Notes under the pieces: generated by a model
Database searches by the model: none
What the model was told of the DNA's origin: nothing
Seen by the model: only the letters and a program-made list of their open reading frames with translations
Shown: in pieces, positions 11,586 to 64,000 of the stretch
How positions within the stretch are numbered: position 1 is the first letter of the stretch
Layout: every line of letters starts with the position of its first letter
IMG/VR virus record: IMGVR_UViG_3300025250_000043
Span: 5,115-69,114 of that record
Direction: 5' to 3' (one strand)
From: a virus
Taxonomy: Duplodnaviria; Caudoviricetes
Length of the DNA: 64,000 nt
Made by a program: the position numbers and the translations under genes

Positions 11586-12113
11586 TCATAGCCCATCTAC
11601 CGTAGGCGCGGCCGGCTGATAGCCGCCGTTCTGAACGTCAGGGGACGGCGGCGGGACATAGCTCGCGGTGCCGAGTATGATTGCTTGCTCCCAACCGACG
11701 CCCCACACAGAGAGGCCGCGTGCCAGCGTCTTTTCGGAGTTGTAATTGAGGATCGAGATTTGATCGGGGTCCGTCCTTGCGGTCGGCCCCTCTTCCGCAT
11801 GGAAGCGGTTCTCATGGATGACCACGACCAGGCTTTCCGCGATTTCGGCGGCCGTTGTGTCGACGCCCTTGCCGCGATCTTCAGCGATCACCGCCACGGC
11901 GACCGCGACGGCAAGCTTCAGGCGGCCGTCGGAAAGCTTCGTGGCGATGCCGTTGCCAGTGACGGAGACGAGGGCGCCGGGCGTTTTGATCCCGATGCGG
12001 CCCTTCTCGCCCTCGTCGAATTCGTTCGCATACTTGCGGACTTCCTTCAGGGCCGGGACGCGGGTCTTGATCTCTTCGACGATCGCATCCCAAAACGTGA
12101 CGATATTGCTCAT
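11586..12113 (-). CDS. Tail completion/terminator protein (Mu gp37-like)
   Basis: MSNIVTFWDAIVEEIKTRVPALKEV...LSVWGVGWEQ; position after morphogenesis gene. Confidence 0.65.
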   Translation of the reverse strand: MSNIVTFWDAIVEEIKTRVPALKEVRKYANEFDEGEKGRIGIKTPGALVSVTGNGIATKLSDGRLKLAVAVAVAVIAEDRGKGVDTTAAEIAESLVVVIHENRFHAEEGPTARTDPDQISILNYNSEKTLARGLSVWGVGWEQAIILGTASYVPPPSPDVQNGGYQPAAPTVDGL

Positions 12114-12538
12114 CCGACCACCGCCTTCAGGAAATTGACAAGCGTCGTCTCGATCTCGGCGAGGTTCGCTTGCGACGCGCCGAGCCAGGGACGGGCGACC
12201 ATCTTCGTTGTGCCGAATTGGTGATACTTGCCATAGGGCACGCCAGAGCCGACCGTGACGCTGTCGCCGGCAACGAAGTTGGCGATCGAGCCCATGAGGC
12301 GGCCGGTGCGGACAAGCAAGCCGCGACCCTTCTGCGACTTGCCTCGCGCATAGGAGCCCGACCAGGGAGCCCAAGGCACGCCATCGGGCGAAACCTTCTC
12401 GCCGAACCGGCGCTTGGTCTGGCGCTCCGCGATGCCGCCCACAGCGCGCAGCAGGCGGTTCCGGAAGGAAGCTTGCGCAAGCGCGTTCATGACCTTGTCG
12501 GCATCCGACGTGTCGAAGGAAATGACGACTTCAGGCAC
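12110..12538 (-). CDS. Virion morphogenesis protein (Mu gpG/P2 gpS-like)
   Basis: SPDGVPWAPWS...LLVRTGRLMGSI...YHQFGT..MVARPWLG. Confidence 0.9.
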   Translation of the reverse strand: MPEVVISFDTSDADKVMNALAQASFRNRLLRAVGGIAERQTKRRFGEKVSPDGVPWAPWSGSYARGKSQKGRGLLVRTGRLMGSIANFVAGDSVTVGSGVPYGKYHQFGTTKMVARPWLGASQANLAEIETTLVNFLKAVVG

Positions 12539-12942
12539 TAGCCGCGCTCCCAGGTATAGAAGCCAGTCGCGAAGTCGGGGCCGGTCTGCTCTTCCTGCTC
12601 GACCGGGACGCCGATCGTCGCCTTGCCGGCCGCGATCTTCGTCAAGAGCGACACCGCGTCTTCATAGCGCGTGCGATGCTCGTCGGTGCGCGGCCCCGCC
12701 TTCAGGGCGAGCCGGTAAAGCGCGATGTCGACGCAAAGCCGCTTCAGGACGGGCGTCGCGGCGGAGATCGGCAGCGGATATTTCGCGCCGACGTAGCTGT
12801 CAATTTCAGCCGAGGCATTCGCTAGACCTTCGGCGACGCCGGTTTCATCAAGCTGGCCGGGATTGTCTTCGTCTTCAGCGACGCGCAAGAGCTCGTCGGC
12901 TCCGTAGAGCTTGGCGATGTCTTCCTTCGTGGCGTAGGGCAT
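12538..12942 (-). CDS. Head-tail connector (Mu gp36/DUF1320-like)
   Basis: MPYATKEDIAKLYG...ASAEIDSYVGAKYPLP...DIALYRL...RYEDAVSLL. Confidence 0.9.
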   Translation of the reverse strand: MPYATKEDIAKLYGADELLRVAEDEDNPGQLDETGVAEGLANASAEIDSYVGAKYPLPISAATPVLKRLCVDIALYRLALKAGPRTDEHRTRYEDAVSLLTKIAAGKATIGVPVEQEEQTGPDFATGFYTWERG

Positions 12943-12960
12943 GGCATCACCTTTGGAAAT

Positions 12961-13037
12961 TGGTTGCGGGAGCGGGATTTGAACCCGCGCGCTCCGGAGC
13001 ATGAACCCGGCGGGCTACCAGACTGCCCCATCCCGCG
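12961..13037 (-). tRNA. tRNA-Met(CAT), initiator (fMet) type, with variant anticodon arm
   Basis: CGCGGGA TG GGGC AGTCTGGTA GCCC G CCGGG TTCATGC TCCGG AGCGC GCGGG TTCAAAT CCCGC TCCCGCA A CCA; 77 nt, C1:A72 mismatch, encoded CCA. Confidence 0.92.
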
Positions 13038-13051
13038 TTGAAGGCCCTCGA

Positions 13052-13483
13052 TCAGAGGGCCAGGTAACAGACCTCTCCGCCGGTCCAGGCGTCGCACTCG
13101 ATCGCGACCTCGATCGCGCGTCGCGCGTCAGCGCCCATGACCATTGCGGCGTAGGCGTAAGCCTCGCCGGAGCCTGTTGAGTAGAAGTCGGCCCGCAAAG
13201 GGCCGGTGAAACATGGTCCGCCGTTGTAATACCAGACAGAGCCGTCCGGCTTGACCAGCAACGCCTTGACATCAAACGTCTCGGCGAAGTCTTGCTCGAC
13301 GCCGACCGCTTCAACGGCGCGGCGGAAGCTATCGGGGAGCCCGACGGTGCTCGACGACACGCCGAGAAGCGAGCCATCCTCCAAGCGACGAAGCTTTGAC
13401 TTCGTCCCTGTCGGATGCTTGTCGCCCGCATAGGCGCGGCTGTCGGCCGCCATGACGCCCGCGCGATACGCGATTGTCGTCAT
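13052..13483 (-). CDS. Proteasome-beta/HslV-like Ntn-hydrolase (threonine peptidase fold)
   Basis: N-terminus M-TTIAY..GVMAADSR..., Lys near position 28-30, internal TGSG..YA motif. Confidence 0.7.
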   Translation of the reverse strand: MTTIAYRAGVMAADSRAYAGDKHPTGTKSKLRRLEDGSLLGVSSSTVGLPDSFRRAVEAVGVEQDFAETFDVKALLVKPDGSVWYYNGGPCFTGPLRADFYSTGSGEAYAYAAMVMGADARRAIEVAIECDAWTGGEVCYLAL

Positions 13484-13492
13484 GGCCTATTT

Positions 13493-13819
13493 TCAGGCCA
13501 CCTTAGCGATTTCGGCCTGAAGGATCGGAAGGATTTCTTCCTTCGTCTTGGCCTCGCCGAGCTCGATCTTGAATTCGGCCGCGACAGCCTTCAGTTCGGC
13601 GGCGCTCATGGCCGCGAAGTCCGGCGGTTCGGCCGACTTCTGTTCTTTCGGCTCTTTCGAAGCCTTCGGTTCCTTGCCGGCCTTCGGTTCCTTCGGCTCT
13701 TTCGGTTCCTTGGTGGGAGCCTTGGCCTCATAGCCGTTGCCGGTAGCCTTTTCGTGGCCCTTGGAGCCGACTTCGACGAGGATTTCGGCCTGGCCGTTGG
13801 TGAGTGTGATCAGCTTCAT
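13493..13819 (-). CDS. Head-associated protein with KEP repeats and C-terminal HeH/Rho-N-like helix pair
   Basis: KEPKEPKEPKAGKEPK linker; DFAAMSAAELKAVAAEFKIELGEAKTKEEIL. Confidence 0.65.
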   Translation of the reverse strand: MKLITLTNGQAEILVEVGSKGHEKATGNGYEAKAPTKEPKEPKEPKAGKEPKASKEPKEQKSAEPPDFAAMSAAELKAVAAEFKIELGEAKTKEEILPILQAEIAKVA

Positions 13820-13837: not shown

Positions 13838-13868
13838 AAAAAAAGAAAGGGCGAGGTTTCCCTCGCCC
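13838..13868 (-). terminator. Intrinsic terminator after major capsid gene
   Basis: Minus strand GGGCGAGG-GAAA-CCTCGCCC-TTTCTTTTTTT. Confidence 0.8.
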
Positions 13869-13885
13869 CTTCCTATCGGTTGATG

Positions 13886-15031
13886 TTAGCCGTGATGTCG
13901 GACGGCCAGGGCGTCACGGATTTTCTTGGTGCCGAACAGGATGTCGAAGCGCCAGATGCGGCTCGACTTGCCCGGATCGCGCCAGGTTTCCAGACGGAGC
14001 GGGATGCCCGTGACCGGATCGGTCGCAACCGAAATGGTCGAGCTCTCGCTCTCTTCGTCCGCCAGCGTGCGGGCCGCCCACATGAAGGCGTTCTTCTGGA
14101 ACGCCAGGTTCACGGTGTAGGGCAGACCGGCGGTGCCTTCGAAGGTAACGGCCGCGTTGTCGGCGGCGGCGCCCTTCAGGGCCGGCAGGAACTTCACCTG
14201 TGCGAACGCGCCAGCAACGGCCGCGACGTTCTCGGTCACGACATACTGGCCCTCGACGTTCGCGACGGTGAACACGTCACCGACAACCAGGGTCCGCGTG
14301 CCAGTCGAGCCGTCGATCGCCATCGACGTTGCACCGGCAGCAGCAGCGCCGTTCACGGCCAGGCTGTCATCGACGGCCGTACCGGGAGTGTGCTTCGGAA
14401 CCATCTGGTCCGAATAGTTGTCGAAGCCGTAAATGCGGCCGAGGGAAGCCTCGCGAAGGGCGGCGGTCGAGCCGGTCTTGTCGAAGCCCTTCATGCCCTT
14501 CAGGAAGTTCTTCTCGGCCTTGCTGTCGAACACCGCGCGGCGTTCGGCGGTGCCCGCAAGCTGAAGGTTCAGCGCCTCGCGGCTGTCGAGAAGAGCGTCT
14601 TCGTTCGCGGGAGTGGTGTTAGCCCCGCCGACGAAGTTCGGGACGGTCTTATACAGCGCGAACAGGTTGCGGTTGACGGAATTCGCCAGCGCCTTCACCG
14701 CGCTCTCGGCGGCCGAGGGCAGAATGCCGCCGGTCAGGCTCTCGCGCATTTCCTTGTCGGACATGCCGAAAGCCTTGTACTTCCACTGGTCGAGCACGAT
14801 GTCGACCGTACCGGAACCGAGATCGGTCTTCGTGGTGCCGGTGTTCGGGTCGAAGTCGTCGGCCTCACCCAAATCCTGCGGCAGCGGGACCGAGATCGTG
14901 GCGGCCTTCTTGGCGGCTTCCGCCGAGTAATCAGACGCGACCAGGGCCGGCATGACGCAAGCCTCGCGCAGCACCGGGAGGGCCGCCGGGAGGATCAGGT
15001 CGTCCATGAGTTTCTTGAGATCGTTTGCCAT
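13886..15031 (-). CDS. Major capsid protein (P22 coat/gp5-like family)
   Basis: 382 aa, ATISVPLP, LREASLGRIYGFD, WRFDILFGTKKIR; follows scaffold. Confidence 0.88.
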   Translation of the reverse strand: MANDLKKLMDDLILPAALPVLREACVMPALVASDYSAEAAKKAATISVPLPQDLGEADDFDPNTGTTKTDLGSGTVDIVLDQWKYKAFGMSDKEMRESLTGGILPSAAESAVKALANSVNRNLFALYKTVPNFVGGANTTPANEDALLDSREALNLQLAGTAERRAVFDSKAEKNFLKGMKGFDKTGSTAALREASLGRIYGFDNYSDQMVPKHTPGTAVDDSLAVNGAAAAGATSMAIDGSTGTRTLVVGDVFTVANVEGQYVVTENVAAVAGAFAQVKFLPALKGAAADNAAVTFEGTAGLPYTVNLAFQKNAFMWAARTLADEESESSTISVATDPVTGIPLRLETWRDPGKSSRIWRFDILFGTKKIRDALAVRHHG

Positions 15032-15087
15032 TTCCATTCCTTCAAAGTTTGGACAAGCCGGCCCTCAAATGCGAAAGTCGCCGGGAG

Positions 15088-15918
15088 TTACCCGACGACT
15101 TCGATCTGGCCCGACATGTAATCGGAGGTCAGTTTCCGCTTGGTCGCCTCATCGGCGGCACCGAGCTTTGCAGTCCATTCAGCGCGGGTGTACTTGCCCG
15201 CCGCCCCGCCGCCGTTCTTGTTGTCCGGCGGCACGCCGCCGCCGCCCTTCGCCTGGCTTTCAAAGGCCACGGCAAAGCGCTTGTCGGCACGCATTTCGAC
15301 GACAAGGTCATCCACCGACATCATTTCGCCCTTGGCGTTCTTGATGCGGGGATTTCCGTTCGCGTCGATGACCTCGACTCCGAATTTGCCATCCTTCTCA
15401 GTCAGGCGAAGACGGTCGGTCACGACACGCTGAAGCAATTCCGGGTTGCCCTTGTGCGCGGAGAGCGCGGTCAGGGCGGCGTTGTCGACCAACACGCGAC
15501 GAATTTCGCCGGTCAGGGCGCCCTCGCGTTCGGTCCACTTTTTCTTGTCGGTTTCGACTTCGGCGAGGATTTGCGCCTTGATCGCGTCGACCTTCTCGCT
15601 CGCGATACGGTCGGCCTCGACAGCAGGGTCGAGATTGCCGATCTTCGCCAGCTTGGCGATCGCTTCCTTGGCGGCCTTGGCGTCCAGACCTTCGAAGCCC
15701 TTCAGCTTGCCGTTGGTCTGCTTGTGCGCCTCGCGCTCACCGGAGAGCGCCGACTTCAGGCTCTCGACATTGTCGAGCGCAAAGCCGTGACTGCCTTCCA
15801 CATCCAGGCGGAACTTGCCGGCCAGGTCGCCAGAGTCGTCGCCCTCGATCTTCGTGTAAAATCCTCGCGCCGTTTCGGGGACAGCCGAAACGTCGTCAAT
15901 AATTGCCTTCAGTGCCAT
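15088..15918 (-). CDS. Capsid scaffolding protein
   Basis: MALKAII...FRLDVEG...LKSALSGERE; coiled coil; C-terminal GGG motif; precedes capsid. Confidence 0.8.
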   Translation of the reverse strand: MALKAIIDDVSAVPETARGFYTKIEGDDSGDLAGKFRLDVEGSHGFALDNVESLKSALSGEREAHKQTNGKLKGFEGLDAKAAKEAIAKLAKIGNLDPAVEADRIASEKVDAIKAQILAEVETDKKKWTEREGALTGEIRRVLVDNAALTALSAHKGNPELLQRVVTDRLRLTEKDGKFGVEVIDANGNPRIKNAKGEMMSVDDLVVEMRADKRFAVAFESQAKGGGGVPPDNKNGGGAAGKYTRAEWTAKLGAADEATKRKLTSDYMSGQIEVVG

Positions 15919-16561: not shown

Positions 16562-16627
16562 TGACAAAAAAATTTGTTGAAGCGCCACCGCGACAAGTTT
16601 ATATGTCAGCCCTCACCTACCACGGAG
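16562..16627 (+). promoter_or_regulatory. Promoter of ADP-ribosylglycohydrolase: two 18-bp operators, -35/-10, CCTACCAC, SD
   Basis: TGACAA-AAAAAT-TTGTTG (16562), CGACAA-GTTTAT-ATGTCA (16591), TTGAAG-N17-TATATG, CCTACCAC-GGAG (16616). Confidence 0.7.
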
Positions 16628-16636
16628 AAGCGACAC

Positions 16637-17542
16637 ATGATGAACGTACAACAGGCCGTCGGCAGCTTTATCGGGCTCGCGGTCGGCGATGCTCTCGGCG
16701 CAACACTCGAATTCGGCCCGCGCCTGCATCACAACCCGCACACCGAAATGATCGGCAAAGGTCCGTTTGGCCTAAAACCAGGCCAGTACACCGACGATAC
16801 CGCGATGGCTATCGCGCTCTCCCACGGCATCCTCAATTCCGGCAAGGTCTTCAACCCGTTTGAAGCCGCGATGGAATTCGCAAGCTGGTATGCTCGCGGC
16901 AAATACTCGTCGAATGGGCGATGCTTCGACATCGGCAACCAGACGCGCAAGGCGCTCGATCGCTTCATCGACACTAAGACGGCAATCGCCTCTGAAGACG
17001 AAGAGGCGCGAGGCAACGGCGCGATGATGCGGCTTGCTCCCGTCCCGATCGCCTATTGGCAGTCGCCGGAGACGGCGGCCCATGTCGCGGACCTTCAGGC
17101 GCGCATCACCCACAATAGCCAATACAACGCCGCCGCGTGCCGCTGGCTTGCGTATCGCCTGGCGAAGCAATTCTCGTCGTCGCGAAGCCTTTTCCATGAG
17201 ATCGACGGCGACGGCGAGGAATTGCTCGCCGGCAACATGGAGCTCATTGCCTGCGTCCGCGAGCGGTGGAAGGTGCTACCGCCCTCGTCGGTGATCTCGG
17301 ATGGCCATGTAATGCACACTCTTGGCGCGGCGCTTTGGTCAGTCCAGAACACAAGCACCTTTGAGGCGGCCGTCGTGACGGCTGTAAACCTGGGCGGGGA
17401 CGCCGACACCGTCGGCGCGGTCACTGGCATGATTGCCGGCGCGGTCTATGGCGTGGACGCCATCCCCGAGCGCTGGAGCCGGGTTCTCGTTCACCGCGAC
17501 CCGATCAAGAGCCTGGCGCAACGGCTCACGCAACTGAATTGA
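16637..17542 (+). CDS. ADP-ribosylglycohydrolase (ARH/DraG family)
   Basis: GLAVGDALGATLEF, YTDDTAM, GNGAMMRLAP, THN, GGDADTVGAVTGMIAG all present. Confidence 0.95.
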   Translation: MMNVQQAVGSFIGLAVGDALGATLEFGPRLHHNPHTEMIGKGPFGLKPGQYTDDTAMAIALSHGILNSGKVFNPFEAAMEFASWYARGKYSSNGRCFDIGNQTRKALDRFIDTKTAIASEDEEARGNGAMMRLAPVPIAYWQSPETAAHVADLQARITHNSQYNAAACRWLAYRLAKQFSSSRSLFHEIDGDGEELLAGNMELIACVRERWKVLPPSSVISDGHVMHTLGAALWSVQNTSTFEAAVVTAVNLGGDADTVGAVTGMIAGAVYGVDAIPERWSRVLVHRDPIKSLAQRLTQLN

Positions 17543-17547
17543 CGAAG

Positions 17548-17573
17548 AGGCCGGTTTCAACCGGCCTTTTTTT
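17548..17573 (+). terminator. Intrinsic terminator after ARH, overlapping stop of convergent ORF
   Basis: AGGCCGGT-TTCA-ACCGGCCT-TTTTTT. Confidence 0.8.
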
Positions 17574-17766
17574 CTTCCTCGTCGAGCTCCGCCAGGCGCT
17601 TCACCGCCGCCGCGACGGCCTCCGGATCATCGTTCGCCTCTATGATGTCCTCACAGATGAACCGTTCATTGGCCCGCTTTTTCGCGAGCTTGGCCTTGAC
17701 CGCCTCGTCGGTATTCAGGACTTCGTAGGGGCCGCCGAACTTGTCGGCGTTGATGGGCGTCTTCAT
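17557..17766 (-). CDS. Small acidic protein coupled to MuF-ART (candidate immunity/partner)
   Basis: 69 aa; ATG overlaps MuF-ART stop (ATGA). Confidence 0.7.
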   Translation of the reverse strand: MKTPINADKFGGPYEVLNTDEAVKAKLAKKRANERFICEDIIEANDDPEAVAAAVKRLAELDEEEKKAG

Positions 17767-20216
17767 TCGGTCACTTCCTCGACTTCTAGGACGATCACGC
17801 GGTTCCCCGAATAGGTTCCGACCTTTTCCTTGTAATAGGTCGTTTCATCGCGCACGCCCACTACGCGGTATTGCGTGCCGCGCGTGATGATCTCTTGCTC
17901 ATAGTCGGTTCCGCGCAGCATCGGCGTCCCCTTCTTGAACACGGCTTCCATAACGAAGGCTGTGTCGCCCTGGCCCGGAATGTTGATGGCGGAGCCGTTC
18001 GCAAAGTTCGACGCCGCCCTCTCCCGAACCGAGAATGACATATAGCCGTCATCCGAAACAACCAGGCCCTTGAGATCGTCGACCTTGAAGTCGGCCGGAA
18101 CGCGGGTCGAGCCGAATTGCTCTTTGAGCGTGTGGCGAATGTCGAAGCCGCGAAACCCCTGCATATCGACCGGCGCTTGGTTCTTCATGAGGGCGCGGTC
18201 CATCCTGGCGATCTTGTCCGCCGTCGCGCCGCCGAGCTCTTTGATCTTTCGGCGGTCGCCCTTGTGCTCGCGGAGCATGGCGTTGATGGCGCGATAGGTC
18301 GAGCCCTTGTACTGGTCGATCGCAGTCGCCTCCGGCGCGGTCACGTCGTTGTAGTGCTGGCCGGCCCATGAGAAGTATTCGTGGTCGGCTGTCTTGAGCT
18401 TGTAGAAGGTATGGCCGTTCGCGCCCTGTCCGATCTCGTGCTTGATCGACATGATCTCTTGATCGGAGAGCTGGATTTTCTTCCCGGCCTTTTTCGCGGC
18501 GGCCAGGGCGGCTTTGATCTTCGCCGCTTCCTCTGCGGCGGCCAGTTGTTCGGCGGCGGCCTTGGCGGATGCCGCCTTGGCTTCCTCGATCGCCTTCGTG
18601 GCGTCGATGTATTGGAACTTGACCGTCGGCTCTTTCAGGGCTTCGGCGGCCTTGATAACCGCCTTGCCCTCGATCAGGTGGAATTTGCCGTCGACCTTCG
18701 CGCCGTAGACTGGTTTGGTCGGATCAAAATTCTGAATGATCGCCTTGACCGTGTCGGCCTGCACCGTACCGCCGTAGACGATCTCGATATCGCCGAGAGC
18801 AACGTCGGCAACCTGGCCGCTGGCCTTGGCGGTTTGCGCGTTCGCTCCGGCGTACATTTTGGCGTAGCCGCTCGCGGCCGGCGACGATGACGGCTGCTTG
18901 AAGTTAAGGGCGCCCTGCTCCGCCTCCGCGTCGATCCGCGCCAGGCCGGCGTTTACCTTGGCTTCCGCCGCTTCCTTCGCGGCCTTGGCCTCGTTTTCGA
19001 GGGCGAGCAATTTGGCGGCTTCAGCTTCGGCGGCTTTCTTCGCCGCGATAGCCTCCGCGCTCTCCGCAATCTTGACCTTCGCGGCGGCCTTGGTCTTCGC
19101 CAGGGTCTTCGCCGCCTCCGGCTGGATTGGGGCCGGCGGCGAGTTGCGCTTCACCGCGCCAGGATCTAGGGCGGCTTGCTTTGCGGTCTTGTCGCCGAAC
19201 GCGCGCTTCCATGCGGCGGCGTCGTTCGCCTTTAGTTGGTCGAGCGTGAGCGGCCGGCCGCTGTCGGCGACGAATTTGTCGAGAGCGATTCGGCCGTCCT
19301 TCCAAAGCTTTTGCTTTGCCGGGCCGAGCACTTCCTTTTGAACCGCGTCCGGCTGGTCGGCCAGCCATTTCGCGTAGTCGTTCACCGCCTCGACTTCCTG
19401 GCCGATGACGATCGGGGCGATTGTCGACCGACAGTTGACGTGTGCCGGCGGGATCGGGTTCGTCGAGTTCGGGGAATTCTGGTAGACCGCGCCGGCCCTC
19501 GATCGGCAAACCGGCGTCGTGCGCGCGTCGAGAACCGAAATCCACTGGTAGCGATCGAACACGTCCGCGTTGTCGTCGAGGAAAGTCTTGTGGGCGGCGT
19601 TTGAGACGTGGTTGACGGCCGTCCGCACCAAAGCCTCGACGCCGCGTTGCGTGCCGCGCAGAACACCGTCCCCATAGTTGAGGGCTCGAGTTCCGCGAAT
19701 GCGCCGGACGATCTCCGGAATGCCCTCGCCTTCCATGACGCCCATCAGCACGGCGTCGTGGACCTTTTGCTTGATCTGGTCGGGATACTGGAGAAGCCAA
19801 TCCTTGATGTAGCGGCCCTGAAGCGGGCGCGTGGTAACGATGGCTTTCAAAAGCTGCGGAGCCGGCGTCACAAAGTTGGTCGCGAAAGGCAGGGACGCCG
19901 AATAGGTGTTGGCCGCCCACTGGGCTTCATGCACCGCGAGGTCGCCGAGCTCCGTCTCGACGGTCGAGTTGACGACGGCCATCGCCTCGACGGCGGTGGC
20001 CCGAACCTGGGCGAGCAAGTTCGCAAGATGCTGTTGCGTGGCGTTGTTCGGGCCGGCCGTGGTCGCGCCGACGCTTGGCATGGCCGAGAGCTTGGCGACG
20101 ATGTCGGCCTCGACCTTGTTCAGCTTGTTCAGGATTTTTTTGTTGAGGGCTACGCCGTAGCGCTCCAGCCCTATGCGGTGTTGAACGAGTAGGTCGTGGG
20201 CAACCGCGTTCGGCAT
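17763..20216 (-). CDS. Head morphogenesis protein (SPP1 gp7/MuF) fused to C-terminal ADP-ribosyltransferase (VIP2/Alt-like)
   Basis: N-terminal MuF motifs YQWISVLDARTTPVCRSRAG, PPAHVNCRS; C-terminal YKGSTYRAINAMLR, FRG, YMSFS, EQE. Confidence 0.9.
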   Translation of the reverse strand: MPNAVAHDLLVQHRIGLERYGVALNKKILNKLNKVEADIVAKLSAMPSVGATTAGPNNATQQHLANLLAQVRATAVEAMAVVNSTVETELGDLAVHEAQWAANTYSASLPFATNFVTPAPQLLKAIVTTRPLQGRYIKDWLLQYPDQIKQKVHDAVLMGVMEGEGIPEIVRRIRGTRALNYGDGVLRGTQRGVEALVRTAVNHVSNAAHKTFLDDNADVFDRYQWISVLDARTTPVCRSRAGAVYQNSPNSTNPIPPAHVNCRSTIAPIVIGQEVEAVNDYAKWLADQPDAVQKEVLGPAKQKLWKDGRIALDKFVADSGRPLTLDQLKANDAAAWKRAFGDKTAKQAALDPGAVKRNSPPAPIQPEAAKTLAKTKAAAKVKIAESAEAIAAKKAAEAEAAKLLALENEAKAAKEAAEAKVNAGLARIDAEAEQGALNFKQPSSSPAASGYAKMYAGANAQTAKASGQVADVALGDIEIVYGGTVQADTVKAIIQNFDPTKPVYGAKVDGKFHLIEGKAVIKAAEALKEPTVKFQYIDATKAIEEAKAASAKAAAEQLAAAEEAAKIKAALAAAKKAGKKIQLSDQEIMSIKHEIGQGANGHTFYKLKTADHEYFSWAGQHYNDVTAPEATAIDQYKGSTYRAINAMLREHKGDRRKIKELGGATADKIARMDRALMKNQAPVDMQGFRGFDIRHTLKEQFGSTRVPADFKVDDLKGLVVSDDGYMSFSVRERAASNFANGSAINIPGQGDTAFVMEAVFKKGTPMLRGTDYEQEIITRGTQYRVVGVRDETTYYKEKVGTYSGNRVIVLEVEEVTE

Positions 20217-43693: not shown

Positions 43694-43816
43694 TCAAAAG
43701 AACACCCTCCAGACGACGAAGGCGGTGAATGCGGAGCCGACGACGAAGCCGCCGGTCGCCCACAAGAGCCGATCGATGATCGGCGCGATGATAGGGACTA
43801 GCTCCATGATCTTCAC
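43694..43816 (-). CDS. 40-aa membrane peptide after portal
   Basis: GTG start overlapping portal stop; IIDRLLWATGGFVVGSAFTAFVVWRVFF. Confidence 0.45.
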   Translation of the reverse strand: MKIMELVPIIAPIIDRLLWATGGFVVGSAFTAFVVWRVFF

Positions 43817-45309
43817 GCCGCCTTCGCCGGGTTCGGGTTGTCGTTCGTGGCGTTCGGGTCATCCGTGGTGGCGGGATTATCCGGCTCCGTCCCCAAGCCC
43901 GTCCCCTCTTCCGCCAGGAGCATTTCCTCCGCGTCGGCGTCGAAGCTTGCCGCGAGCTCGCCACGGCGCTTCAATTCCGACCAGTAGGTCTTGCGCGACA
44001 ACTGACCGGCGACGCGAGCCTTCAGAAGGCTATCCATCGTCGGGCTGTCATTGCCCATGTCGTCGTCGAATTCCGTCTGGACATTGACCGAGGGCGCCCG
44101 CGTCGTGTCGGCCGCGCCGCGATAGCGCTCCGCGAACACGAAGGCCCGCTCAAGCGCATCCTTGAGATTGAGGGCCATGTTCTTGACCGCCGAATTCTCG
44201 CGGCGCTCGCCGGCCTTGACTGAGGTCGCGGTGATGACGCCGGAGCCCTTTTGGTGCGGCTTCATGGCGAGCGCGTCCATTTCCGCCTCCAGACGCTCAA
44301 GGTCTTTCTGGCCGGCCTCGATCGCCTTGCCTTCGGCCTCGACGTAGTACCACTTGCCTTGCGGGTCTTCCGTGGTGAGCAGCGAGTTGGGGCCGATCAC
44401 CGGCTTGACCGGAGCGTCCTCGCCCTTCTTCGGGACCGGCATCTTGACGCCGGAGCCCGCCAGGATCGGGAACCGGGCATACTTCAGGATGTTGCGCTGG
44501 TCGCTCGACGACTGCCAATGCTCGACGTTCTTCCACGCAAGATCGAGGAAGGGCGGCTTGACCGTGAACCCGGTCTTCGTGGCGCGGCGGCCGGTGAAAA
44601 AGGGGATGAGTGAGACTTCGCCGAGTGGAGCCGGCCCGCTCGCGACGATCTTCCACTCTTTCGCCTCCGTGCCTGCGTCGTCGACCGAGAGCTCCCATAA
44701 GTCCCATCCGTCGGAACGATAGTGGCGGACCCGCTTAACCGTGTATTCGGTGAAGCCGACCATTTTGACGCCGTTCTCAAACCAACGGGCATCAATGACC
44801 GTCGGCCGGCCCGTCCCCATGGACACGGTGCAGGAGAGCACGTCTTCAGCCCGGAAGTGAACGAAATAGGGCCGGATGTTGCCGGCGATCTCTTGCGCCA
44901 GGGTCATGCCAGGTTCGGCGCGAGGCATATCGACCAGAATGTACGCCAGGCCAGCGGTGACGCCGTCTTCAAGGAAGCGGCGCGCGAACACGTCGAGCGA
45001 GTTGCCGAGGAAGTCCACGTCATAGATGAACTGGTCATAGTACGGGTCATACTCGCCAGCGAGGGCGATAGGCGTTCCCATAGGCTTGCCGACGGCGAGA
45101 TTGACCGCGCCTTCAAGCTTGTTGAGCAGCACGGTTTCGGCCTTGCGGCCCTCGTAGCGCTGCGGGTCTTCCGTCGGCCATTTCGGGAGATAGCTTTCTC
45201 CGGCCGCGCGCATGGCCTCCGTGCCAGCCATGACCGTACGGAGCACCTTGAAGCTGGATTGGTTTGCCTTGTAGTCGGCGGAGGGAACGGTAGGATCGAT
45301 ATTCGCCAT
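43813..45309 (-). CDS. Portal protein (DUF4055 family)
   Basis: GTEAMRAAGESYLPKWPTED..RY..R, PYFVHFRAEDV, IPFF, PPFLDLA..N..HWQSSSD. Confidence 0.92.
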   Translation of the reverse strand: MANIDPTVPSADYKANQSSFKVLRTVMAGTEAMRAAGESYLPKWPTEDPQRYEGRKAETVLLNKLEGAVNLAVGKPMGTPIALAGEYDPYYDQFIYDVDFLGNSLDVFARRFLEDGVTAGLAYILVDMPRAEPGMTLAQEIAGNIRPYFVHFRAEDVLSCTVSMGTGRPTVIDARWFENGVKMVGFTEYTVKRVRHYRSDGWDLWELSVDDAGTEAKEWKIVASGPAPLGEVSLIPFFTGRRATKTGFTVKPPFLDLAWKNVEHWQSSSDQRNILKYARFPILAGSGVKMPVPKKGEDAPVKPVIGPNSLLTTEDPQGKWYYVEAEGKAIEAGQKDLERLEAEMDALAMKPHQKGSGVITATSVKAGERRENSAVKNMALNLKDALERAFVFAERYRGAADTTRAPSVNVQTEFDDDMGNDSPTMDSLLKARVAGQLSRKTYWSELKRRGELAASFDADAEEMLLAEEGTGLGTEPDNPATTDDPNATNDNPNPAKAA

Positions 45310-45311
45310 TG

Positions 45312-61177: not shown

Positions 61178-61599
61178 ACGTCCGCCCTGCCTTTTGCGAT
61201 TATGACAAGACCACGCCTTTGCGGCTTGAGACGGCCGCGAAACTTGCCTATCCCGACGGGTCTATGACGGTCAAAGGGCTCCGCAAAGAGCGCGACCGTG
61301 GTCGACTTACCACCGAAATTGTCGCCAACAAGGAATACACAACCCTTGAGGCGATCGAACAAATGAGAGCTCTATGCCGCGCCCAGCCAAAGGCGCTCGC
61401 CTCCATTGGCGAGACGAATTCAGGAAGAAAGACGGGTCGCTCATCCACGCGGCCGGGTGGTTCATCTACGACGGCGACAAGCGATACAGCACTGGATGCG
61501 CTCGCGCTGACCTTGCAGAAGCTGAAAAACAACTCGCCGAGTACATCGCGAAAAGGCACCGGCCGACGCGCCACCGCCACCGTGATCCCGATCAAGTAA
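61174..61599 (+). CDS. Excisionase-like protein overlapping int
   Basis: PLRLETAAKLAYPDGSMTVKGLRKERDRGRL...YTTLEAIEQM. Confidence 0.7.
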   Translation: MNVRPAFCDYDKTTPLRLETAAKLAYPDGSMTVKGLRKERDRGRLTTEIVANKEYTTLEAIEQMRALCRAQPKALASIGETNSGRKTGRSSTRPGGSSTTATSDTALDALALTLQKLKNNSPSTSRKGTGRRATATVIPIK

Positions 61600-62600
61600 A
61601 GATCGCGGACGTTCTAAACGTCTATGGGTCGGAAGTTGCGCCAAACCACGCGAGGCCGAGCGAAACGGCCTCGCGCCTGGCCGCCATTGCTAAGTTCTTC
61701 GGCCGCCTCAACGTGGCGGACATCAACGGCCAGCTATGCCGCGACTATGTCAAGCAAGCCTCAACGACGTCGGCCACTCGTCGACAGCTTGAAGACCTTC
61801 GGGCCGCCCTGAAGCACTACTACGACGAAGGCTACGTGACCTCGATCCCGGCGATCGTGTTGCCGGAGAAATCCGTAGGGCGCCAGCGCTGGCTTACGCG
61901 AAGCGAAGCCGCGCGATTGATCCTGGCGGCCTGGCGCATGAGGCAAACATGGAAAGGCGTCGCCAGCGACCGCCGGACAGGCCAGCACGTCGCTCGCTTC
62001 ATTCTGGTTGCGCTCTACACCGGCACGCGCTCCGGCGCGATCTGTGAGGCCGCTATCCGGCCGACGGAGGGCCAAGGCTATATCGACCTCCAGCGCGGCG
62101 TCTTCTACCGTCGCGCCGATGGTGAGCGCGAGACGAAGAAACGCCGGCCGCCAGTGCGGCTACCCGATCGGCTGCTTGCCCATATCAGGCGATGGGCGAC
62201 GACGCCTGTTAGCATCAAGACGAAGGCGCGAGGCAAGAGCAAGACGATCGGCCGGATGATCGCTCACGACTTCGTCGTCGAGTGGCAAGGCCACCCCGTC
62301 GGCTCCGTTCGCAAGGCGTTCGAAACCGCGTGCGAGATCGCCGGCCTTGGCTGGTATGACGAAGATGGCAAATTCCAAACCGACGTGACGCCCCACGTCC
62401 TGCGCCACACCGCCGCGACCTGGCTCATGCAGAACGGAACCGACCTCTCGCTCGCGGCCGATTTCCTTGGCATGACGGAGGCGGTTCTCCGCTCGACCTA
62501 CTATCATCATCACCCGGATTTCCAGGCCGAGGCGGCGGAGAAGATCACCGCGAAAGCGCCGGCCCTGAAGGTGAAGAGCAACGTCGTTCGGATGCGCTGA
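61374..62600 (+). CDS. int: Tyrosine recombinase (integrase)
   Basis: YTGTRSGAI (R), KTK/K, TPHVLRHTAATW (HxxR), FLGM, YYHH (Y). Confidence 0.96.
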   Translation: MPRPAKGARLHWRDEFRKKDGSLIHAAGWFIYDGDKRYSTGCARADLAEAEKQLAEYIAKRHRPTRHRHRDPDQVKIADVLNVYGSEVAPNHARPSETASRLAAIAKFFGRLNVADINGQLCRDYVKQASTTSATRRQLEDLRAALKHYYDEGYVTSIPAIVLPEKSVGRQRWLTRSEAARLILAAWRMRQTWKGVASDRRTGQHVARFILVALYTGTRSGAICEAAIRPTEGQGYIDLQRGVFYRRADGERETKKRRPPVRLPDRLLAHIRRWATTPVSIKTKARGKSKTIGRMIAHDFVVEWQGHPVGSVRKAFETACEIAGLGWYDEDGKFQTDVTPHVLRHTAATWLMQNGTDLSLAADFLGMTEAVLRSTYYHHHPDFQAEAAEKITAKAPALKVKSNVVRMR

Positions 62601-62637: not shown

Positions 62638-62739
62638 AACGACGGAATAAATGTGGAACACCGGGCTTTGAACGGGACCGCGCCGAAGGCTGAAAGCCTT
62701 GAAAACCGGGCATTCCGGGCGATGCCGACTGGCTACAAG

Positions 62740-62789
62740 CCTCGTTCGGGACGAGGGGGTCGCAGGTTCAAATCCTGCCACTCCGACCA
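62740..62789 (+). other. att core: 3' 50 nt of tRNA-Pro(CGG)
   Basis: CCTCG-TTCGGGA-CGAGG-GGGTC-GCAGG-TTCAAAT-CCTGC-CACTCCG-ACCA; no D-arm or 5' acceptor strand upstream. Confidence 0.9.
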
Positions 62790-63160
62790 GTCTGAAGCTT
62801 CCCGAAAATCCGCAGTTTTCTCCTGATACTCCAACGGCTTGCGCCGGTTTCGGCGTTCGAACAACTGCGGAACGGTGGCACGTTGAGACGCGTCTCACGT
62901 CACCCCTGTGACTTTGGCCGTTCTCGTGATGTTCAGGCCACTTTCGGATGCTGCCTCTCGTCGATGGTTTTAAGGCGCGCCCTGGGTGTGGACGCATTGA
63001 CCCGCAGCAATATGAATGGAAATGTGGCGTGCCATGGCGCTGTCAGCTTCGCCGCATCGCCAAGGCAGGTGACGAAGGCGATCGTTCGAGGACGCTGCGC
63101 CGAGGTCGGCTTGCTATTGGCACCATATGGCAAACGTATCGATATCAGGGGGAATTGGTC

Positions 63161-64000
63161 ATGAGCGACAACAGGCCGGACGTTACCAAAGATTGGCAAG
63201 CGACGCAGGGCCAGAAATCTTCCGCCACGCGCCTGCGCATGTTCGCGGCGCTGGCGTGGATCATCGCCATCGGCGGCGAGATCGCCGGGATCGTTTTGTT
63301 CTACCAGCACAAGTTCGACCACGGGAACCTGCCGCTGCTGATCGGCCTCCTGGTCGGAATCGCGATTTTCGCCATCGCCGGCAACTTGCTGTGGAAGGCG
63401 GCCAACCGGCACGATCCGGCCCGCGCATCCGACACGGCCAAGTTCTTCTTCCAAAACCAGCTCGGCGCGATCATCACGCTGATCGCCTTCCTCCCGCTGG
63501 TTATCCTGATCCTCACCGACAAGAACATGGACCCGCAGACCAAGAAGGTTGCCGGCGGCATCGGCGCCGCGCTGGCCGTGATCGCGACGGTAACGGGAAT
63601 CAGCTTCAAGCCTCCATCGGTCGAGCAGTACACGCAGGACACGAACGCTTGCGCGACCCAGATAAAGTCGGGCCAGCCCACCACTGCCTGCTCGCCCGAG
63701 GTCGCCGCCCAGGCGCAGCAGATCGCCACGGACTCGGCTGCGGTGACTGCCGCGACGAAGGACGCGAGCCACCCCGCCGGTCAGGATATCGTCTACTGGA
63801 TCGCGCCCGAAAACGGCGCGGCAAAGTCGTCGGAGCCGCATGTTTTCCACCTTTGCGCGGGCGTCAGTCCGCTGAAGGACAAAACCGTCAATAGCGGCTC
63901 GGTGACGGAGGCCTACGCACAGAACGCCATCCGCATCACGAAGCAGATCGAGATGGAACAGAAGCAGTGCGGGTTCACCGCAACAACCGGCACCAACTGA
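63161..64000 (+). CDS. Host membrane protein (hypothetical)
   Basis: Four hydrophobic segments plus Cys-containing C-terminal domain; outside att. Confidence 0.8.
   Translation: MSDNRPDVTKDWQATQGQKSSATRLRMFAALAWIIAIGGEIAGIVLFYQHKFDHGNLPLLIGLLVGIAIFAIAGNLLWKAANRHDPARASDTAKFFFQNQLGAIITLIAFLPLVILILTDKNMDPQTKKVAGGIGAALAVIATVTGISFKPPSVEQYTQDTNACATQIKSGQPTTACSPEVAAQAQQIATDSAAVTAATKDASHPAGQDIVYWIAPENGAAKSSEPHVFHLCAGVSPLKDKTVNSGSVTEAYAQNAIRITKQIEMEQKQCGFTATTGTN

Follow-up and report, generated by a model that had tools for sequence, protein, structure and literature searches.

The window analyzed here, a stretch of 64,000 nucleotides, originates from an IMG/VR provirus whose record comprises 69,114 bases, and the sequencing runs listed as containing the stretch are root-metagenome DNA runs, with no RNA run among them. 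On the minus strand, a tRNA gene lies between the genes of an HslV-like head-module protein and a head-tail adaptor of the Mu Gp36 family (Table 1), and all neighbors of the tRNA share this strand with it. A preliminary description of this DNA had located the tRNA inside the head operon, which agrees with the close spacing to the same-strand HslV-like gene (14 nt upstream) and to the Gp36 adaptor gene (18 nt downstream).

Table 1. Features of the late head-neck region around the tRNA gene, listed from upstream to downstream on the minus strand.
Feature	Position	Strand	Basis
MuF-like head protein fused to an ADP-ribosyltransferase domain (817 aa; C-terminal domain, PF03496)	17763-20216	-	
ADP-ribosylglycohydrolase ARH (PF03747), convergent to the MuF-ADP-ribosyltransferase gene	16574-17542		
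Scaffold	15088-15918	-	
Major head protein	13886-15037	-	phrog_283, E=6.8e-86; places the tRNA in the late structural operon
Terminator-like hairpin, 14 pairs and T run, just 3' of the major head gene	13843..13874	-	consensus match only
Small ORF	13493-13819	-	
HslV-like protein, head module	13052-13483	-	phrog_1040; L074 homologue with 62% identity, followed directly by a tRNA
Spacer, 14 nt, from the upstream stop codon to tRNA position 1; presumed RNase P leader	13038..13051	-	ORF coordinates, sequence; processing predicted
Initiator-type tRNA(CAU), 77 nt, CCA encoded	12961..13037	-	ARAGORN; Rfam RF00005; sequence
Anticodon arm CCGGG UUCAUGC UCCGG (positions 27-43)	12994..13010	-	sequence; L074 syntenic tRNA with the same loop
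Anticodon CAU	13003..13001	-	sequence
Spacer, 18 nt, after CCA, with the adaptor ribosome-binding site AAGGTGA	12943..12960	-	sequence
Head-tail adaptor, Mu Gp36 family	12538-12942	-	PF07030, E=2.4e-31; phrog_195
Tail-completion protein	12110-12538	-	

The Pfam match of the adaptor starts at residue 3 of the ORF beginning at 12942. The terminator-like hairpin precedes the tRNA-containing stretch on its upstream side, and no promoter-like site adjoining the tRNA was found in the window. This layout suggests that the tRNA would be co-transcribed with the late mRNA, and it is reasonable to infer from the lengths of the two spacers that RNase P cuts this mRNA when the tRNA is excised. The HslV-like protein adjoining the tRNA upstream has no Pfam match, and no classical prohead protease was seen among the scanned head genes. 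At the far end of the window, ARAGORN also called a tRNA-Pro(cgg) at 62715–62789, which adjoins the integrase gene (61374–62600). Its Rfam score fell below the threshold, and tRNA pairing is confined to its 3' half, so that it was rejected as a second phage tRNA; a host tRNA-Pro that left a remnant at the attachment site is its probable origin. No second copy of its 30-nt 3' end was found within the window, and no tRNA was found in the first 5.2 kb of the record.

For the gene at the head-neck junction, ARAGORN, which had been proposed as a check, called tRNA-Met(cat) at exactly 12961–13037 on the minus strand, and the Rfam RF00005 model scored it at 56.9 bits (gathering score, 29; E=1.3e-09). 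When read as the reverse complement, the acceptor stem begins with a C1·A72 mismatch, which is followed by G2:C71, C3:G70, and G4:C69, and it ends with A73 and the encoded CCA. The D arm has a purine:pyrimidine pair at 11:24 (G11:C24). The initiator hallmarks named in the preliminary description (C1:A72, purine11-pyrimidine24, G29-G30-G31, CAU, and CCA) were hence all found in the sequence. The unpaired 1:72 position, the feature linked to formylation and EF-Tu exclusion, is present as C1·A72, and the window tRNA also retains the complete set of G2:C71, C3:G70, A73, and CAU, which are established identity elements for the formylase and MetRS (PMC9976931). The minimum-energy fold predicted by ViennaRNA was not a cloverleaf (z=-1.05), which is uninformative because the tRNA is GC-rich. 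The cloverleaf is strongly backed by covariation over 20 related tRNAs that share the UUCAUGC loop, in whose alignment 99.8% of cells were paired and 13 of the 20 pairs had changed on both sides, versus 37–51% paired cells for controls with slid partners. By these sequence marks, the gene is a phage-borne tRNA of the bacterial initiator type.

The departures from that type are found in the anticodon arm. Its stem consists of C27:G43, C28:G42, G29:C41, G30:C40, and G31·U39, so that the position of the three consecutive G:C pairs (29–31:39–41) is occupied by two G:C pairs and a G·U, and its loop reads U32 U33 C34 A35 U36 G37 C38 instead of C32 U33 CAU A37 A38. Both the loop and the G·U at 31:39 had been described previously and were read here directly from the reverse complement. 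The variant bases in the arm are thus U32, G37, C38, and the U39 of G31·U39. The claim that the arm departs from bacterial tRNA-fMet at 32, 37, 38, and 39 holds, but the G31·U39 pair by itself is not special because it is a natural alphaproteobacterial variant (GC/GC/gu) in which the purine:pyrimidine order is kept (PMC5389676).

Comparison with bacterial genes was based on 10 tRNA(CAU) genes of 5 Paracoccaceae genomes in which related prophages reside, and on the best 30 tRNA matches from 401 sampled alphaproteobacterial genomes, of which one, the unpublished G245, entered the tally only. Two prophage-borne copies (those of L082 and of the G505 prophage, both described below) were set apart, and all the other genes read have the loop CUCAUAA. 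The alphaproteobacterial tRNA-fMet of 35 genomes reads UCAGG CUCAUAA CCUGA almost throughout. The closest alphaproteobacterial tRNA in this sample shares 80% identity with the window tRNA (range for tRNA-fMet genes, 74–80%), and at each of 37, 38, and 39 the base of the window tRNA departs from that of every alphaproteobacterial copy sampled. It is also not a fresh copy of an alphaproteobacterial gene because it has G29:C41, where A29:U41 is typical of initiators in that class (PMC5389676). In a search for the host, no exact record of the capsid protein was found, the flank of the provirus (62790–64000) gave no DNA match in 201 Paracoccaceae genomes, and the closest capsids of cultured phages share only 37% identity with the provirus capsid. 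The host-versus-phage comparison of tRNAs was made on relatives only.

The nearest relative found, the viral contig L074, was retrieved through the protein upstream of the tRNA (62% identity) and not through the tRNA itself, and it carries a tRNA in the same place. The two tRNAs differ at 9 positions in all, and three pairs are changed on both sides, namely 11:24 (G:C to C:G), 31:39 (G·U to U:A), and 51:63 (G:C to C:G), while the 7-nt loop UUCAUGC is identical. An identical loop together with covarying stem pairs is what purifying selection on the loop of a functional tRNA would produce. The tRNAs of the window, L074, and the G505 prophage all retain the encoded CCA along with the identity elements for formylation and MetRS. 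A Fuscovulum prophage (L082), found via the downstream adaptor, has a tRNA(CAU) (2907–2981) directly upstream of the adaptor gene, with a U1:A72 pair and a canonical loop, and a tRNA(CAU) directly upstream of the Gp36 adaptor gene also occurs in L226. Among the best 80 adaptor loci in IMG/VR, 2 have a tRNA within 1.5 kb upstream, and both are initiator-like with CAU. The tRNA is a sporadic passenger of the head/neck junction, and it is always of the initiator-like CAU type where present.

An alphaproteobacterial genome, G505 (L226/L397), enabled us to compare a prophage tRNA with the tRNA-fMet of its own host. Its prophage has the order major head, small gene, tRNA(CAU), Gp36 adaptor, and tail completion, whereas the canonical tRNA-fMet gene sits behind the 23S-5S genes of an rRNA operon. 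The two tRNAs differ at 8 positions, 6 of which fall within the 17-nt anticodon arm (Fisher p=0.001); these comprise compensatory changes of both 27:43 and 29:41, C32U, and A38C. No difference was found in the acceptor stem, the T arm, or the variable region. The prophage copy is evidently a host-derived initiator gene that was rewritten only in the anticodon arm, as judged from this pair of genes.

We scanned IMG/VR for other tRNAs with such an arm. An exact 15-nt scan for the anticodon arm gave 73 matches, all of which were chance hits in coding DNA and none a tRNA, so that the exact arm of the window was not found as a tRNA in any of the other IMG/VR records returned. When the scan was relaxed to any 31:39 pair, many tRNAs were obtained, and the UUCAUGC loop was found in 20 distinct initiator-like phage tRNAs that fall into 12 families, as cut at 85% identity computed outside the anticodon arm. 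All 20 have A73 and a non-Watson-Crick 1:72 combination (C·A, G·A, A·A, C·C, or G·G). The contigs bearing them have GC contents of 42–68%, and most are phages of 44% GC. Two background scans showed how common other loops are. A T-arm/acceptor pattern gave 27 distinct phage tRNAs, with 21 CUCAUAA, 2 UUCAUAC, 2 UUCAUAA, 1 CCCAUAA, and 1 UUCAUGC loops. A scan with the stem CCGGG/CCCGG and U33 fixed and positions 32, 37, and 38 free gave 38 distinct phage tRNAs, with 20 CUCAUAA, 7 UUCAUAC, 3 UUCAUGC, and scattered others; the loop was non-canonical in 18 of the 38, and U32 was mostly combined with C38. In both scans, the canonical loop was kept in about half or more of the initiator-like phage tRNAs. 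Among cultured phages, the Pseudomonas phage PaMx74 (JQ067093.2, 3359–3434) has an unannotated tRNA with the arm CCGGG UUCAUAC UCCGG, including G31·U39, the UUCAUAA loop occurs in Xoo-sp2, QDWS359, and VBv52, and mycobacteriophage Catera has a CUCAUGA loop with G37. Preservation of the loop in the nearest relative and its recurrence in 12 phage families make these changes look selected rather than accidental. By the sequences collected, phage initiator-type tRNAs with a rewritten loop form a class that recurs, and no description of this class was found in the literature searched.

Several further tRNAs were recorded during these scans. In L088 (2112–6301), which belongs to the 44% GC phages, an array of at least 10 tRNAs ends with the UUCAUGC initiator-type tRNA and includes, as another member, a Met(CAU) tRNA whose loop is canonical. 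The Catera tRNA (NC_008207.1, 91599–91673) is the tRNA-Met of a Bxz1-type array and has an initiator-like body, A at position 1, and three G:C pairs. A second recurrent class of phage CAU tRNAs is represented by that of L082 (2907–2981) and occurs at several loci (L245, L246, L251, L256, L258, and L262). Its members have an initiator-like body and 3' end, but U1:A72 is paired; the loop is usually canonical, and G is found at 39, mostly as a C31:G39 pair. These tRNAs may be elongators, Ile2 tRNAs, or altered initiators.

The window tRNA is a phage copy of a tRNA species known as a nuclease target. Cleavage of tRNA-fMet by VapC toxins is described for enterics, Leptospira, Bosea, and Rickettsia (PMC4105405, PMC8522696, PMC12321070), of which Bosea (PMC8522696) and Rickettsia (PMC12321070) are Alphaproteobacteria, and the enteric VapC cut is placed between A38 and C39, as cited in PMC4105405. 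That phage tRNAs carry loop changes where nucleases cut is an accepted idea (PMC10264068). [quoted passage not shown] The tRNA of the G505 prophage differs from that of its own host at 32 and 38. The preliminary description had proposed a backup initiator insensitive to the nucleases of tRNA-cleaving defense or TA systems, a proposal that is partly supported here. We favor the reading, plausible rather than probable, that the window encodes a working phage initiator tRNA whose arm may have been remodeled to evade a factor, likeliest a nuclease, that recognizes host tRNA-fMet by its anticodon stem-loop. The tRNA would be transcribed within the late head-neck mRNA, from which RNase P and 3' processing would release it. 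Host MetRS would charge it via CAU and A73, it would be formylated owing to C1·A72, G2:C71, and C3:G70, and its use at the ribosomal P site would depend on G29:C41 and G30:C40. Selection would remodel the arm at 31:39, 32, 37, and 38, with the remainder keeping initiator identity, so that the attacking factor would no longer recognize the phage copy. The best candidate attacker may be a tRNA-fMet-cleaving PIN/VapC-type toxin or another anticodon nuclease that cuts at 38/39, and initiation could then continue in late gene expression while the host initiator is destroyed. A profile search for the PIN domain (PF01850), for which 10 of 14 control genomes were positive, found none in the provirus, the record of L074, or G505 and G001, the two host genomes carrying related prophage tRNAs. 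This absence weighs less because a lysogen is a host in which the phage succeeded. Extended to all phage initiators with a U32/C38 loop, with or without G37, the proposal would describe a widespread class that serves as a private initiator when host tRNA-fMet is attacked via its anticodon stem-loop, the attacker being either a host nuclease or a phage shut-off effector (here the MuF-ADP-ribosyltransferase); we consider this broader form possible, albeit doubtful.

The same arm would also result from relaxed constraint, if a supplementary or dosage-boosting initiator copy captured from the host is needed only briefly and drifts because alphaproteobacterial ribosomes tolerate variants. Initiators of both the au/GC/GC and the GC/GC/gu type are natural in Alphaproteobacteria and are accommodated by their ribosomes (PMC5389676), the tRNA is rare among Gp36-type prophages (the 2 of the best 80 loci noted above), and the arms of the syntenic prophage tRNAs vary, with G·U, U:A, G:C, and C:G at 31:39 and UUCAUGC, UUCAUAC, CUCAUAA, and CUCAUUA as loops. 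The U:A or C:G at 31:39 and the U:A at 29:41 in relatives would mean weaker P-site selection by E. coli rules (PMC5389676), which could reflect such relaxation. However, the concentration of the G505 changes in the arm and their compensation in the stem argue against pure drift, the loop is unchanged between the window and L074 despite 7 positions changed elsewhere, the same loop recurs in 12 unrelated families, and U32 is coupled to C38 in the scan with the fixed stem. Relaxed constraint appears unlikely. A further alternative ascribes the loop to start-context tuning, in which G37, together with C38, lengthens the codon-anticodon pairing before AUG and confers a preference for starts preceded by C, common in this GC-rich phage. 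In E. coli, the base at 37 of tRNAfMet pairs with that at −1 of the mRNA, and the A37G change turns the preference toward mRNAs that complement it, at little growth cost (PMC10018350). At the 67 window starts that have a ribosome-binding site, the base at −1 is most often C (25/67) and least often U (10/67), but G is depleted at −2 (9/67), which gives no support for pairing by C38. Moreover, in a test that is weak owing to crude gene calls and partial loci, C preceded 37% of starts in G37 loci against 41% in A37 loci at GC ≥0.55, and 12% against 33% at GC 0.45–0.55. Quadruplet pairing of G37 with C(−1) was rejected on this absence of excess C in matched GC bins, with the same reservation about the test, and most UUCAUGC tRNAs occur in 44% GC phages, where A or U dominates −1. 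We regard start-context tuning as quite improbable.

The MuF-ADP-ribosyltransferase fusion and the ADP-ribosylglycohydrolase present in the window raise another alternative, that a phage effector disables host tRNA-fMet via the anticodon loop and the rewritten copy is immune, with the virion-borne enzyme as the candidate effector and the glycohydrolase as its eraser. The record of L074, the only close relative with the same loop, also has both genes (53% and 60% identity to the window proteins, respectively), while neither was found in 4 relatives lacking the UUCAUGC loop, 3 of which also lack the tRNA. A tRNA anticodon loop is modified by one described ADP-ribosyltransferase toxin (PMC13617354). 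Against this link, the co-occurrence represents one evolutionary event because the two phages are closely related, and a search for PF03496 that detected it in the window and in the record of L074 gave no match in G505 or in 18 further records that carry UUCAUGC tRNAs, some of them 87–98% complete. The PF03496 family is best known for protein targets. The enzyme was hence rejected as a general explanation of the loop and is kept only as a lineage-specific variant of low probability, which makes this a very improbable account. Apart from its bearing on the tRNA, the pair of convergent genes at 16574–20216 resembles a toxin delivered with the virion, accompanied by an eraser or immunity protein. 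It may also be asked whether the tRNA is a translating initiator at all, instead of an RNA-processing punctuation or a recombination hotspot at the head/neck junction, or a tRNA of other identity (elongator Met or lysidine-modified Ile2). The tight placement between cistrons at a module boundary, the U1:A72-paired version with a canonical loop in related prophages (L082 and several others), and the loss of purine11:pyrimidine24 in L074, which has C11:G24, would fit such a role. Retention of the full identity set and CCA in the three tRNAs of the window, L074, and G505 speaks against it, as does the unpaired 1:72 and A73 in 20/20 UUCAUGC tRNAs, which would be needless for a mere processing signal. 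This is the least probable of the alternatives considered.

Escape from a nuclease that reads the anticodon stem-loop, the reading favored above, can be set beside known systems. The window tRNA resembles bacterial tRNA-fMet (E. coli metZ/metY and the alphaproteobacterial au/GC/GC type) in C1·A72, G2:C71, C3:G70, A73, CAU, G30:C40, and CCA, and the T arm GGUUCAAAUCC is common to it and the bacterial initiator. It differs in the UUCAUGC loop in place of CUCAUAA, in G31·U39, in G29:C41 versus the A29:U41 of Alphaproteobacteria, and in its location in a phage late operon versus that of bacterial tRNA-fMet after an rRNA operon. With this loop, the Cm32·A38 pair and the A37 triple of E. coli tRNAfMet (PMC2528185) cannot form as such. 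Among related phage tRNAs, that of the G505 prophage shares the head/adaptor position, C1·A72, U32, and C38 with the window tRNA, but has A37 and U29:A41, and its major head protein belongs to phrog_1005. Outside the arm, it is nearly identical to the tRNA-fMet of its host, whereas the window tRNA is more diverged from bacterial copies. The closest arm from a cultured phage is that of PaMx74, whose whole tRNA is 81.8% identical and shares C1·A72, U32, C38, and G31·U39; it has A37, not G37, and its phage, a virulent Pseudomonas siphovirus, encodes it just after the large terminase gene and not at a head/adaptor junction. The engineered A37G variant of E. coli tRNAfMet (Hollerer and Jeschek 2023, PMC10018350) indicates that G37 is compatible with initiation, with a shifted −1 preference, but this is a single change in an otherwise canonical loop, and U32/C38 lie outside that study. 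The evasion tRNAs of van den Berg et al. 2023 (PMC10264068) likewise belong to nuclease-target species, and they carry substitutions adjoining the cleavage site, where the window tRNA departs from the sampled alphaproteobacterial copies. That survey reports a general avoidance of tRNA-fMet among phage-encoded tRNAs, whereas the present phage encodes an initiator in rewritten form, whose resistance is a proposal.

No means of stopping translation is more economical than destroying the initiator tRNA, as several toxins do. Contrary to the conclusion of avoidance drawn in the published survey (PMC10264068), many phages encode initiator-type tRNAs, and a sizeable fraction of these share the same few changes at positions that shape the initiator loop and flank the VapC cut site. 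If the variants resist cleavage, they would represent a counter-defense that targets translation initiation, and also natural orthogonal initiator tRNAs with which the loop bases needed by the ribosome and IF3 could be probed. If they do not, initiator loop positions 32, 37, and 38, near-invariant in the bacterial copies examined, would still be shown to be dispensable in nature.

Elsewhere in the window, the large terminase and portal genes (43813–46826) lie approximately 23 kb from the MuF/scaffold/capsid/tail block (1–20216). Between these blocks are plus-strand accessory and replication genes, including those for a beta-clamp-like protein, DUF4942 and a methyltransferase, HNH, and DUF1643. 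Amidoligase_2 and gamma-glutamyl cyclotransferase (GGACT) genes were found at 47141–48094 and 51770–52261, each beside a helix-turn-helix gene, and they flank two ParB-like genes.
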